Assembly (NCBI RefSeq): GCF_009931435.1
Contig: NZ_CP043414.1
Origin: Escherichia coli
GTDB taxonomy: Bacteria > Pseudomonadota > Gammaproteobacteria > Enterobacterales > Enterobacteriaceae
Direction: 5' to 3' (one strand)
DNA: 64,000 bases
How positions within the stretch are numbered: position 1 is the first letter of the stretch; every line of letters starts with the position of its first letter. The translations under genes were made by a program, and so were the position numbers. The notes below the pieces were generated by a model, which saw only the letters and a program-made list of their open reading frames with translations, did not search any database and was not told where the DNA came from. Positions 4,953 through 23,847 of the stretch are shown piece after piece.

Positions 4953-5534
4953 ATGGCGGTTCAAAAGAATGTTATCAAAGGCATACTGGCAGGTACGTTT
5001 GCGCTAATGCTCAGCGGTTGTGTCACTGTGCCGGACGCCATTAAAGGCAACAGTCCCACGCCGCAACAAGATTTAGTTCGGGTAATGAGTGCGCCGCAGC
5101 TGTACGTTGGTCAGGAGGCACGCTTTGGCGGCAAAGTGGTTGCGGTACAAAACCAGCAAGGGAAAACCCGCCTGGAAATTGCCACCGTACCGCTGGACAG
5201 TGGAGCCAGACCGACGCTGGGAGAACCTTCTCGCGGTCGCATTTATGCCGATGTGAACGGTTTTCTGGATCCGCTAGATTTTCGTGGACAATTGGTCACG
5301 GTAGTTGGACCAATCACCGGTGCGGTTGACGGCAAAATCGGCAACACGCCCTATAAATTTATGGTGATGCAGGTAACGGGTTACAAACGTTGGCATTTAA
5401 CCCAGCAGGTGATTATGCCGCCTCAGCCGATTGATCCATGGTTTTATGGCGGTCGTGGCTGGCCCTATGGCTACGGTGGATGGGGCTGGTATAATCCCGG
5501 CCCCGCGAGAGTACAAACTGTTGTAACTGAATAA
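4953..5534 (+). CDS. yeaY: Slp-family outer-membrane lipoprotein YeaY
   Basis: 193-aa ORF with lipobox LSGC signal peptide. Confidence 0.85.
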
Positions 5535-20132: not shown

Positions 20133-20954
20133 ATGATGCACAGGTTGAATCTCAATGGCTATGAACCCGACCGACACCATGAAGCCGCGGTCGCATTTTG
20201 TATTCACGCCGGAACGGATGAGTTAACCAGTTCTGTACATAAGCACCGCAAAGGGCAGTTGATACTGGCACTACATGGTGCAATTACCTGTACGGTGGAA
20301 AATGCTTTGTGGATGGTGCCGCCACAATATGCGGTTTGGATACCGGGCGGGGTGAAACATAGCAATCAAGTGACAGCTAACGCTGAACTCTGTTTTCTGT
20401 TTATCGAACCCAGCGCAGTGACAATGCCGACAACATGTTGCACATTGAAAATATCGCCCTTATGCCGGGAATTAATTTTAACCCTGGCAAACAGGACGAC
20501 GACTCAGCGTGCTGAGCCGATGACCCGCAGATTAATTCAGGTCCTGTTTGATGAACTCCCTCAGCAGCCACAACAACAGCTGCACCTGCCCGTTTCTTCT
20601 CATCCTAAAATCCGCACGATGGTGGAGATGATGGCGAAAGAGCCCGTCGAGTGGGGCTCATTGGGGCAATGGGCTGGCTTTTTTGCGATGAGTGAACGCA
20701 ATCTTGCCCGGCTGATAGTGAAAGAGACGGGGTTGAGTTTTCGCCAGTGGCGTCAGCAGTTACAGCTGATTATGGCGCTTCAGGGATTAGTAAAAGGCGA
20801 TACAGTACAGAAAGTTGCACATACGCTGGGGTATGATTCAACAACGGCCTTTATTACTATGTTTAAGAAAGGCCTGGGGCAAACGCCAGGCCGATATATT
20901 GCGGGATTAACTACTGTTTCCCCACAATCAGCGAAACCAGACCCGCGGCAATAA
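20133..20954 (+). CDS. nimR: AraC-family transcriptional regulator NimR
   Basis: 273-aa ORF with cupin N-domain and AraC HTH C-domain; divergent from nimT. Confidence 0.85.
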
Positions 20955-21357
20955 GCGGGCCAACCGGTACGCCGCGAAACAGCGCCACGCCCAAAACAGT
21001 GCCCACCAGCAGCCCGGCGACCAGTTGCGGCTGGCTGCCCATTAACGTCACGCCGCGCCCACCTAGCCAGGAGACAATAACGCCTACTGCAATTGCCACC
21101 AGCGATTTCCAGTTCAGAAATGAGTGAATCAGGGTTGAGGGCGGTAGCGTCCCGCTGGCGATGGGGGCCATAACGCCAATCGTCAGAATGATTATCCCGA
21201 TACTTAGCCCCTGTTTTTCAATCCACGGGAAAAAGGTGCTTAACGGTGTGACGCGGACAATGATTAACACCAGAATTGAAACGGCGACAGTGGTGTTATG
21301 ACTGATAAAGCCCAGCGCAGCTAACCCGAGCAGGATCAGCAAAGTGACATCAAACAT
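20911..21357 (-). CDS. yeaL: UPF0756 membrane protein YeaL
   Basis: 148-aa ORF; 3-prime end overlaps nimR by 44 bp (convergent). Confidence 0.8.
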
Positions 21358-21525
21358 CGTGGTTTCCTTGCCAAAAAATAATAAGCCTGCTTACTTTACG
21401 CTTGCTGCAGGAAGGAAGTAGAAAATCTTTACGTTTTTTGCATAAAAAATCAGGCGAACTGTCATCAAACTGCCATTTGTACACGCTATCAATAACGTGA
21501 AAACAGTTATCTCCCGGGGCATACC

Positions 21526-21630
21526 ATGAACGATCAAATGTTCGTTGAGACACTGATTATCACGTCATCGTTTTTTGTTATTGCTGTTGTGCTAGTTTTG
21601 TCCGTTCTGCTTATTGAACGGACAGGCTAG
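21526..21630 (+). CDS. yoaI: Small membrane protein YoaI (34 aa)
   Basis: Hand translation: [34 protein letters not shown]; not in ORF track; stop abuts the yeaK stop. Confidence 0.7.
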
Positions 21631-22134
21631 TTACGCAGTGCGGCGGAAATTCACCAGTTCTGGTTTCGCAATGCGCAGATAATCCGCAGTTTTCAAAATA
21701 ACGGATTTATTCAGCATGCCTGCATTAAAGGCGATTTCATCGAATCGCTCGAAGAGCAATGGGTCGGCGACCAGTTTGAGTTTTGGATGGAAGCTGAAAG
21801 GGGGGATCGCGCCAAAGACACAGCCTGTGAGTTCATCGACTTCCGCCGGGCTGGCCAACGAAGCGCGTAATCCGCCTATATGGATGGCAAGTTGGCTCAG
21901 ATCGGCCTGTTGATCGGCAGCGAGGATCGCCAGAACATGTTGATTTACGCCATTGCCTTTGACTTTACATACCAGTGCCTTAGCCCCCTGGCCTAAAGCG
22001 GTGCCACGAATTTCTGACACCGCTTCGCATTTACCTACCGCCTCATGGGTAACGACGCGGAAGTCAGCTCCTTCTTGTGATAATAAAGCGATTAACCGCT
22101 GATGCGTCACGCTTCCTTTAGCCATTTCAGTCAT
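21631..22134 (-). CDS. yeaK: YbaK/ProX-type aminoacyl-tRNA deacylase YeaK
   Basis: 167-aa ORF. Confidence 0.8.
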   Translation of the reverse strand: MTEMAKGSVTHQRLIALLSQEGADFRVVTHEAVGKCEAVSEIRGTALGQGAKALVCKVKGNGVNQHVLAILAADQQADLSQLAIHIGGLRASLASPAEVDELTGCVFGAIPPFSFHPKLKLVADPLLFERFDEIAFNAGMLNKSVILKTADYLRIAKPELVNFRRTA

Positions 22135-22176
22135 TTCATGCTCCTGAGATTACAAGCAAACAACCACAGAAGATTA

Positions 22177-23667
22177 TCATGAACGGCTGTTTTTGTTCTG
22201 CTTATTGACATATAAACGCTCATCGGAAGCTTTATACGCATCATGTAACGTATCGTTTTCTTTCATCGCATAAATACCGGAAGAGAAGCCGATCTCTTTC
22301 TGCGGCGCGATATGTTGCAGACGTTTTTCGATACGTTCAGGCAGTTGTGCTGCAATTTGCGGCGTCGAATCGACAAGAATGATGCAGAATTCATCGCCAC
22401 CGAGTCGGATGGCATAATCACTTTTACGAATCGACTGTTTAATCGCCTGAGCTAATAACGTAATCGCTAAATCTCCTTCCTGATGACCGAGCGTGTCATT
22501 TATTTGCTTTAACTTGTCCATGTCAATTGCAATAAACATCACCGAAGAACCAGATTGCACCAGTTTTTGCAACCGCTGCTCCAGTTCAGGGGTTAATATT
22601 TTGCGATTATACAGTCCGGTCATCGCATCACTAATATTTTCTCGCGACACATTTTGGTATAAACGGAAGTGCATCCGCACCATATTCAGCAAAATTAACG
22701 CCGTCAAAATCCAGAACAGAACGCTTTTCCACGAAGATGTGATAAAGTAAAGAATATCAATGGATAACGATACACGAATGCCGCCCGGTAAGTCATGGAC
22801 GTAACTGACATACTGGAACAGATTATCTTCGCTCTGGTTGATGATAATGTCGCGCCCAGAATCTGTATCGGTTAGCGTGACATTGAGAAAACGCCAGAGG
22901 AGAGGGCGGTCATGCGTGTAAAAGATATTCCGCAGATTGTTTTTATTAATATCCAGCAGCACAATTCCTTTTAGCTGCCCTGCAACATACACTGGCGTCA
23001 GCAAACTCATCACGTTCTGTTTAGTACGCTGATCCTGGTAAATGCTCGATAATACGGTGCGACCGGTAAAAACTTTTTCAATATCTTTGCGATCGATGCC
23101 AATGCTTCCTGACTGCAGGAAGGACCAGTTATTCATCGCAAAGTACTCAACATTAACCGGCTCATAAAAATAGACATAGAGGTCATTGAGATCGAGATAA
23201 TAGTGAAATTTCTCTTCGGCCATTCCAAGACCTGAACCATAATCATCCTGGTGGCGGTTGCCTTCCACTGCCTGATCAAAAGCGGGTAATAGTGCCGCAG
23301 CTTCCACAATTGTGTCGCAGTCAGTGGATGCGGTTTGTAGTGTACCGTGTAAGCCCGTGTACTTATGGGCAGTCAGGTTTAAACCATGGGTATTATTGGC
23401 AGACTCAAAAGCCTCGCAGATGGCGCGCCGCTGTTCTGGCGACACTTCCGACTGCTCAGCAGCGAGAGCGCGCATCACATGCGCGGCAATGCTCTGATTC
23501 TGATACTTATCATAAAGAAAGGAGGAGTCTGCTCTCTGCACGATATAGCGCAGATAGGCACTCATTGCTCTGTCGCTGGCGACAAGTTCAAAAATAAGGA
23601 AGGAAGATGTCAGCACAATGACACTTGCGGCGATAAAATGCCGGAGCATTCTATGGTGCAATTTCAT
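22177..23667 (-). CDS. dgcJ: Membrane-anchored diguanylate cyclase
   Basis: ORF 22177..23847; start set at MKLHHRMLRHF (496 aa); intact RLGGDEF. Confidence 0.85.
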   Translation of the reverse strand: MKLHHRMLRHFIAASVIVLTSSFLIFELVASDRAMSAYLRYIVQRADSSFLYDKYQNQSIAAHVMRALAAEQSEVSPEQRRAICEAFESANNTHGLNLTAHKYTGLHGTLQTASTDCDTIVEAAALLPAFDQAVEGNRHQDDYGSGLGMAEEKFHYYLDLNDLYVYFYEPVNVEYFAMNNWSFLQSGSIGIDRKDIEKVFTGRTVLSSIYQDQRTKQNVMSLLTPVYVAGQLKGIVLLDINKNNLRNIFYTHDRPLLWRFLNVTLTDTDSGRDIIINQSEDNLFQYVSYVHDLPGGIRVSLSIDILYFITSSWKSVLFWILTALILLNMVRMHFRLYQNVSRENISDAMTGLYNRKILTPELEQRLQKLVQSGSSVMFIAIDMDKLKQINDTLGHQEGDLAITLLAQAIKQSIRKSDYAIRLGGDEFCIILVDSTPQIAAQLPERIEKRLQHIAPQKEIGFSSGIYAMKENDTLHDAYKASDERLYVNKQNKNSRS

Positions 23668-23847
23668 GATAAATGGCACTCCTTCGGTTAGTGAAACGAG
23701 AAAACCAGATAAAGTTCGATTGCGGCCTGGCACAGGGGCGCTAATTATACTCATCTCTGCGCCGCTGGGGAGGGGAAATTTAGGGGTAATAGTAATAAAT
23801 TGTATGCAAAAGCCACGCAAAAAGCATGGCTCTGAATATTTTTGCAC

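Follow-up and report, generated by a model that had tools for sequence, protein, structure and literature searches.

The small membrane protein gene yoaI of Escherichia coli and its zero-gap convergent junction with yeaK: an already characterised gene, a junction kept tight among relatives and an Escherichia-specific hairpin

Introduction

Reviews already include YoaI of Escherichia coli K-12 among the small-protein modulators of sensor kinases. In that strain the protein has been detected by Ribo-RET and, as an SPA-tagged membrane protein, by western blotting; a two-hybrid assay shows its binding to EnvZ, and in reporter assays it activates omrB and ompC and represses ompF, an activity that is lost in the E31A and E31Q forms. 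The residues Ser26, Val27 and Glu31 have been described as invariant in YoaI (Vellappan et al.). Deletion of yoaI gives a signalling phenotype and overexpression of YoaI prolongs the lag phase, and the protein, followed through a chromosomal yoaI-SPA fusion, becomes more abundant in low Mg2+ while the level of its mRNA stays the same, independently of PhoQ.

At the level of transcription, the 18-mer TGTCATCAAACTGCCATT has been reported as the sequence bound by PhoB under the yoaI/yeaL ChIP-seq peak of K-12, where PhoB recruits sigma-70 and RNA polymerase to the yoaI promoter and the activity of a yoaI reporter is PhoB-dependent. In low phosphate, the values for yoaI RNA are 11755/12778 in the wild type and 32/23 in the delta-phoB mutant (log2 +8.8, approximately 450-fold).

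The gene is convergent with yeaK, and in K-12 the transcripts of the two genes have been found to overlap. ExcludonFinder counts yeaK-yoaI as one of 165 convergent excludons that recur in half or more of 58 RNA-seq data sets, the neighbouring junctions yeaL-nimR and yeaO-yoaF being likewise among its entries. According to supplementary file 2 of Adams et al. (2021), Rho terminates transcription in a bicyclomycin-sensitive region at 1874225(+), on the strand antisense to yoaI (Rho score 2.8, p = 1e-5). Total RNA of wild-type K-12 grown in LB contains 2.35 RPM sense and 13.36 RPM antisense to yoaI, that is, a 5.7-fold antisense excess, and 45.4 RPM sense and 3.28 RPM antisense to yeaK (Huang et al., 2020). 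Table S3 of that study lists a perfect, p19-captured 22-bp duplex in which CGGGGGCAUGCUAUGAACGAUC (210 reads) is paired with UCGUUCAUAGCAUGCCCCCGGG (166 reads); this has the geometry of RNase III products, with a 2-nt overhang, and covers both the Shine-Dalgarno sequence and the ATG of yoaI, the density of p19-captured double-stranded RNA being approximately 10-fold higher over yoaI than over yeaK.

Here we describe this locus in a stretch of 64,000 nucleotides of E. coli DNA (contig NZ_CP043414.1), hereafter the window. All of the expression and functional data used come from E. coli K-12 and not from the strain of the window. For K-12, the gene, its regulator, its protein partner, the zero-gap geometry, the overlap of the transcripts and the in vivo duplex are already published; what is new here is (i) that 39 of 41 species with yoaI retain a tight junction (−4 to +30 nt), and (ii) that a strong, Escherichia-specific hairpin, without covariation support, is found at the junction.

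Results

Identity and coding evidence

The yoaI coding sequence occupies positions 21526..21630 on the plus strand, with an ATG start, a TAG stop at 21628-21630 and a product of 34 aa, according to the ORF translation, NCBIfam and RefSeq. An earlier, sequence-only reading of the window had described a 34-aa plus-strand frame that ends at 21630 and directly abuts the yeaK stop, and its coordinates, sequence and zero spacing prove to be exact; it had also named the frame yoaI, for a small membrane peptide, an identity borne out by the NCBIfam match and the RefSeq annotation. The match to the NCBIfam equivalog NF041475.1, “small membrane protein YoaI,” reaches 76.6 bits for a curated cut-off of 45 bits (E = 1.1e-21) and aligns residues 1-34 with positions 1-34 of the profile. 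A single transmembrane helix is predicted (approximately residues 9-30), followed by a cytoplasmic tail of sequence ERTG, and the protein ends in L25 S26 V27 L28 L29 I30 E31 R32 T33 G34, with S26, V27 and E31 all present. Every testable defining feature of the YoaI family is found in the gene of the window.

The surroundings agree with the annotation of the species. An 801-bp region was matched in 5411 of 5426 complete E. coli genomes, to which the region of the window is at most 98.5-99% identical, and the RefSeq order in E. coli is yeaL, yoaI, yeaK (“mischarged aminoacyl-tRNA deacylase”), with the same 0-nt junction, K-12 included, where yeaK occupies 1873574..1874077 and yoaI 1874078..1874182 (ATG at 1874182).

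By itself, a frame of 34 codons is not beyond chance, since 57 ORFs of at least 20 aa are present in 3.5 kb here. Among the 41 distinct orthologue sequences, column entropy at codon positions 1, 2, and 3 is 0.75, 0.35, and 1.28, pN/pS is approximately 0.35-0.38 in the annotated yoaI frame while the other sense frames give 1.0 and 1.8, and the median dN/dS is 0.22, a substitution pattern which indicates that yoaI is a protein-coding gene under purifying selection. S26 is the same in all of these orthologues; V27 and E31 recur in at least 80% of them, not in all.

Promoter and leader

Upstream of the gene, the Pho box TGTCATCAAACTGCCATT lies at 21460..21477 on the plus strand, 49-66 nt from the yoaI ATG, where it takes the place of a −35 element; it is identical to the K-12 ChIP-seq 18-mer, and the window has this one copy, for a chance expectation of 0. 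In an alignment of 42 orthologous upstream regions, the pattern TGTCAT-N5-TG(T/C)CAT recurs in at least 90% of the sequences, and the same holds for a −10-like T-A-N-N-A pattern downstream of it, a GGG Shine-Dalgarno block and the sequence ATG-AAC-GAT. In the window, the putative −10-like hexamer would be TATCAA (21487..21492, plus strand), placed 9 nt downstream of the Pho box, and the Shine-Dalgarno-like element is GGGG (21516..21519, plus strand), 6 nt upstream of the ATG and part of a GGG/GAG block conserved across the orthologues. The arrangement is that of Pho regulon promoters, namely two TGTCA-type direct repeats in an 11-bp register that replace the −35 element some 10 bp upstream of the −10, here a presumptive one. 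No full sigma-70 −35/−10 promoter was predicted on either strand between 20800 and 22400, as is expected of a promoter that depends on an activator, in this case PhoB. The leader of yoaI was also examined for a structure able to explain translational control, and it is no more stable than shuffled sequences (z = 0.16).

Neighbouring genes

On the minus strand, yeaK (21631..22134) encodes the mischarged aminoacyl-tRNA deacylase, a protein of 167 aa with a YbaK/ProX-type editing domain (ORF, Pfam, and RefSeq; PF04073 tRNA_edit, 92.3 bits). Its stop codon, TAA, is the reverse complement of tta at 21631-21633, and there are zero bases between the stops of yoaI and yeaK. On the other side of yoaI, the yoaI-yeaL spacer (21358..21525) holds, for the minus strand, the equivalent of the K-12 Rho termination region (approximately 21483), and beyond it lies yeaL (20911-21357, minus strand), whose product carries DUF441 (Pfam). 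Eight convergent pairs are present in the surrounding 48 kb, with spacings of −44, 0, 21, 42, 50, 58, 92, and 156 nt, among which the zero spacing of yoaI and yeaK is at the short end, without being exceptional.

Several other observations concern this neighbourhood. The convergent genes nimR (20133-20954, plus strand) and yeaL share 44 nt of coding sequence, at 20911-20954, and in a close relative the yoaF/yeaO gap is 21 nt, such that three successive tail-to-tail junctions, all listed as excludons in K-12, occur within approximately 3.5 kb. For dgcJ, the mechanical ORF at 22177-23847 (minus strand) has 556 aa from a GTG, compared with 496 aa (1491 nt) in RefSeq for close relatives, and the upstream extension is probably not translated. 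Inside yeaL, on the opposite strand, 21122-21151 (plus strand) gives a sub-threshold match to the Rfam family JUMPstart (21.5 bits, E = 0.086, the gathering score being 35), which is most likely due to chance.

The junction among relatives

A scan with YeaK, taking one genome per species, gave 80 loci, and in 41 of them yoaI is detectable beside yeaK. It is present in Escherichia, Salmonella, Citrobacter koseri, C. amalonaticus, Enterobacter, Lelliottia, Kosakonia, Trabulsiella, Yokenella, Cedecea, and Pluralibacter, among others, and absent from the C. freundii complex, Klebsiella, Raoultella, Kluyvera, Atlantibacter, and others, in which the yeaK-yeaL spacer is simply shorter. As about half of the sampled yeaK-bearing Enterobacteriaceae lack yoaI, yeaK does not need it.

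Where yoaI is present, the stop-to-stop spacing lies between −4 and +30 nt in 39 of the 41 species representatives: there is no gap in Escherichia and Cedecea, an overlap of 4 nt in Salmonella, Yokenella, and Trabulsiella, a gap of 1-9 nt in C. koseri and C. amalonaticus, and mostly one of about 20 nt in Enterobacter. In Huaxiibacter chinensis and Enterobacter asburiae, yoaI is intact and lies approximately 2.2 kb from the yeaK stop, with an insertion between the two genes; these loci would be natural tests of the importance of the tight junction.

Some of the loci depart from the common form. In Enterobacter quasihormaechei (locus L044, 3022-3162), an ORF of 46 aa ends in VIASVLLLENG, the C-terminus of YoaI of E. 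hormaechei, and its N-terminal part is unrelated; a frameshift in yoaI or a fault in the assembly is the probable cause. The contig CACSKA010000011.1, labelled Chryseobacterium sp. 18061, carries a yeaK of the Enterobacteriaceae type (79% identical) with a convergent yoaI, and is probably a contamination or a mislabelled assembly. In three loci of Pseudocitrobacter, in which tblastn finds no yoaI, a hydrophobic ORF of 27 aa with a TTG start (e.g., LFFVLIFVAFALCLLFILIARDETPPV) is convergent with yeaK and overlaps its 3′ end by 32 nt; this may be a very divergent or decaying yoaI. Finally, YldA (29 aa, MAEAFYILIGFLIMAAIIVMAVLYLENHS; 5331-5420 of locus L083, and 643330..643419 in K-12) gives a sub-threshold NCBIfam cross-match with YoaI (E = 0.005). 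The two have in common a C-terminal VLxLE motif and a convergent geometry, as yldA ends 3 nt from the ybdR stop and is also an excludon entry; BLASTP returned no alignment between YldA and YoaI, so that YldA is no more than a candidate paralogue.

The hairpin at the junction

A stem-loop that can form on both strands spans the yoaI/yeaK junction (21588..21635), and its extended stem includes the yoaI stop codon. The core is a perfect inverted repeat of 9 bp, formed by TGTCCGTTC (21599-21607) and GAACGGACA (21616-21624), with a loop of 8 nt, and folding gives −23.2 kcal/mol on the plus strand (z −5.95) and −17.2 kcal/mol on the minus strand (z −5.06). The arms of the core are also the codons for S26-V27-L28 and E31-R32-T33, and the stem may in part follow from these codons.

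This stem-loop is strong only in Escherichia. No covariation was found in it, as paired cells make up 59.3%, and 58.3% after shuffling (77 of 500 shuffles reach the observed value; covariation score 0.164 vs. 0.153), and the Rfam scan of 20800-22400 returned no match other than the chance-level JUMPstart in yeaL. A conserved structured RNA element was thus rejected, given the lack of covariation and of an Rfam family, and a strength limited to Escherichia. The hairpin was also considered as an intrinsic terminator, possibly a bidirectional one; it is followed by GUUACGCAG on the plus strand and by CACAACAGC on the minus strand, neither of which is a U-tract, and with the terminator scan empty as well this role was rejected. 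A second hairpin, at 21681-21707, was discarded as a terminator for yoaI, being no more stable than shuffled sequences (z = −1.0). It is conceivable that the junction hairpin protects the 3′ ends after Rho termination and exonuclease trimming.

In three Enterobacter loci, and also in two further ones (L040 and L043), the spacer of approximately 20 nt contains the palindrome GGCTGAC-N5-GTCAGCC, with both of the convergent TGA stops in its arms. This is another junction hairpin, different from that of Escherichia.

Overlap of the transcripts

The terminator scan gave no intrinsic terminator at or near the yoaI-yeaK junction on either strand, and consequently the complete transcripts of yoaI and yeaK must enter each other. 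The K-12 data extend this considerably on the yeaK strand. The Rho termination region at 1874225 lies 43 nt beyond the yoaI ATG (1874182), with a coarse resolution of 800-nt windows, and in the data of Huang et al. the coverage of this strand per nt is approximately 0.127 RPM over yoaI, 0.090 within yeaK and approximately 0.010 in yeaL. By alignment, the equivalent of the 22-bp K-12 duplex in the window is 21514..21535 (both strands), with a few bases different. Term-seq has no 3′ end called in K-12 between 1873900 and 1874399, and neither yoaI nor yeaK appears in the SMRT-Cappable-seq supplements. Base composition is a weak indication of Rho loading here: on the yoaI strand, an excess of C over G is confined to the stretch 300-400 nt past the yoaI stop, and the composition of the yeaK strand gives no indication.

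The sequence-only reading had supposed that the zero spacing implied overlapping 3′ UTRs. The overlap itself stands, and in K-12 the transcripts do not end before it, as attested by the excludon entry, the Rho region, the antisense reads and the duplex; what does not stand is that one 3′ UTR would only face another, since the read-through from yeaK covers all of yoaI, including its ribosome-binding site. In other words, according to the published K-12 data, yoaI is embedded, in antisense, in the Rho-terminated 3′ UTR of yeaK.

Discussion

The evidence gathered here makes it very probable that we are dealing with yoaI, a genuine gene that has been characterised before and encodes a 34-residue single-pass inner-membrane protein, its overlap with yeaK included. 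A translation signal exists for it, as published for K-12 (Ribo-RET and the SPA-tag western). As it stands, the result is the confirmation of an annotation, correct and ordinary.

The sequence of events is that published for K-12. Under phosphate limitation, PhoB bound to the Pho box recruits RNA polymerase and raises the yoaI mRNA approximately 450-fold; YoaI is inserted in the membrane, and Glu31 of its cytoplasmic tail contacts EnvZ and stimulates the EnvZ-OmpR output. On the opposite strand, transcription from dgcJ/yeaK crosses the whole of yoaI until Rho stops it just past the yoaI start codon, and transcription from yoaI enters the 3′ part of yeaK; the two RNAs pair in vivo in a duplex cut by RNase III. 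From this, it may be supposed that a strong induction of yoaI modestly lowers the yeaK mRNA and that, in phosphate-replete cells, where the read-through RNA of yeaK exceeds the yoaI mRNA, the former may damp a leaky synthesis of YoaI, with an effect that is apparently small.

Does the overlap regulate?

The antisense interference that had been suggested as possible from the sequence holds in part. The duplex and the antisense excess speak in its favour; an effect on expression is what the data hardly bear out. In the delta-phoB comparison, yeaK RNA is 389/413 in the wild type and 709/655 in the mutant (log2 −0.8, approximately 1.7-fold lower, q = 0.0115, just outside the threshold of that study), and dgcJ (yeaJ), the gene upstream, is unchanged (+0.4, not significant). 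The libraries of this comparison were made with ScriptSeq. ScriptSeq libraries are directional. The drop in yeaK could be an indirect effect of the physiology of the delta-phoB strain. In rnc mutants grown in LB, yoaI sense RNA passes from 2.35 to 2.21 and 1.86, and yeaK sense RNA from 45.4 to 33.1 and 15.5; as neither rises, RNase III cleavage of the duplex limits neither mRNA in LB. Interference is thus plausible, small and unproven, and a neutral overlap is almost as likely.

The latter possibility, to which we give a little less than an even chance, is that the overlap is a by-product of a compact genome, yoaI having been inserted or having arisen in the yeaK-yeaL spacer with neither output meaningfully changed and hence no regulatory excludon. 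Differences in spacing between genera, over a range of −4 to +30 nt, and the tolerance of a 2.2-kb insertion in two species, would be natural in such a case, yet 39 of the 41 species keep the spacing tight. The change in yeaK is 1.7-fold and just short of significance, although yeaK falls and the upstream dgcJ does not; neither mRNA increased in the rnc mutants, whereas the captured duplex lies exactly on the Shine-Dalgarno sequence and ATG of yoaI. The neighbourhood is rich in short or negative convergent spacings (three junctions in a row have −44, 0, and 21 nt), there are 165 convergent excludons genome-wide, and the junction hairpin is lineage-specific and without covariation, all of which agrees with neutrality; the 5.7-fold excess of antisense over sense under non-inducing conditions does not.

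At the other extreme, the junction could be a conserved, conditional two-way antisense switch, in which, in phosphate-replete cells, the more abundant yeaK read-through paired with the Shine-Dalgarno sequence and ATG of yoaI would set the threshold for YoaI, the starvation-induced yoaI (approximately 450-fold) would lower YeaK, and changes in read-through or in Rho could underlie the rise of YoaI in low Mg2+. This we consider unlikely. Standard SPA-tagging adds the tag and a marker 3′ of the target gene. Here they would fall between yoaI and yeaK and disturb the native antisense geometry, which counts against the Mg2+ part of the switch. If the overlap were regulatory, it would link the Pho regulon to the tRNA-editing capacity of the cell through yeaK, and it could supply the missing post-transcriptional mechanism for the accumulation of YoaI in low Mg2+.

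Very much less probable is a pair resembling type I toxin-antitoxin systems, in which a hydrophobic, toxic YoaI would be held in check by the cis-antisense read-through RNA of yeaK. YoaI is indeed small and hydrophobic, and its overexpression prolongs the lag phase, but the gene is activated approximately 450-fold by a physiological signal without reported killing, the phenotype of its deletion is one of signalling and not that of a toxin, and the protein has a specific partner, EnvZ, which it engages through E31. Equally, there is an antisense RNA over the ribosome-binding site and a duplex cut by RNase III, but an antisense sRNA gene or promoter dedicated to this end is lacking (on both strands of 20800-22400 the sigma-70 scan was empty), as is an Rfam family of antitoxin RNAs; the antisense RNA is the read-through of yeaK, without a promoter of its own, which places the pair outside the type I class.

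The idea that yoaI is a chance open frame, and that the conserved element is really the 3′ UTR of yeaK or an RNA structure, may draw on the local abundance of short ORFs and on the very stable hairpin that overlaps the 3′ end of the frame, but it has a negligible probability and is already refuted by the coding-frame substitution pattern, the full-length HMM match above its cut-off, the conservation of the Shine-Dalgarno sequence, ATG and Pho box, the published translation and tagged protein in K-12, a hairpin that is unconserved beyond Escherichia and without covariation, and the lack of an Rfam family at the locus.

Comparison with known systems

The junction resembles those described for overlapping bidirectional intrinsic terminators, in that a single stable hairpin, able to fold on either strand, coincides exactly with the junction. 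It differs from them in that there is no U-tract, the T-run of the plus strand precedes the stem, and the RNA coverage of K-12 continues through the junction; the lack of a U-tract and this continuity of the coverage indicate that the hairpin does not work as a terminator. With convergent excludons, the pair shares the convergent genes, the lack of a terminator between them, the overlapping transcripts and a duplex of the RNase III type. The structural definition of an excludon therefore fits, whereas mutually exclusive expression, which is the defining outcome of these systems, is not established for yoaI-yeaK.

Compared with YoaI of K-12 (b1788), the gene of the window has the same 34 aa in length, the convergent yeaK, the divergent yeaL, the 0-nt stop-to-stop gap, the identical Pho box 18-mer and the residues S26, V27, and E31. 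The protein differs by one substitution, V18 in place of A18, the V18 variant in E. coli being WP_032193887.1, and the 5′ leader and the hairpin show a few base differences, with a junction stem that is longer and stronger in the window than in K-12.

With regard to its product, the closest parallels are MgrB-PhoQ, SafA-PhoQ, and MzrA-EnvZ: in all of these, as in YoaI, a short single-pass protein is induced by one two-component system, binds the kinase of another or of the same system, and changes its output. Within this group YoaI falls far short of the 127 aa of MzrA, acts as an activator, in contrast to MgrB, and differs from the other modulators of sensor kinases in that it acts via a cytoplasmic tail of four residues.
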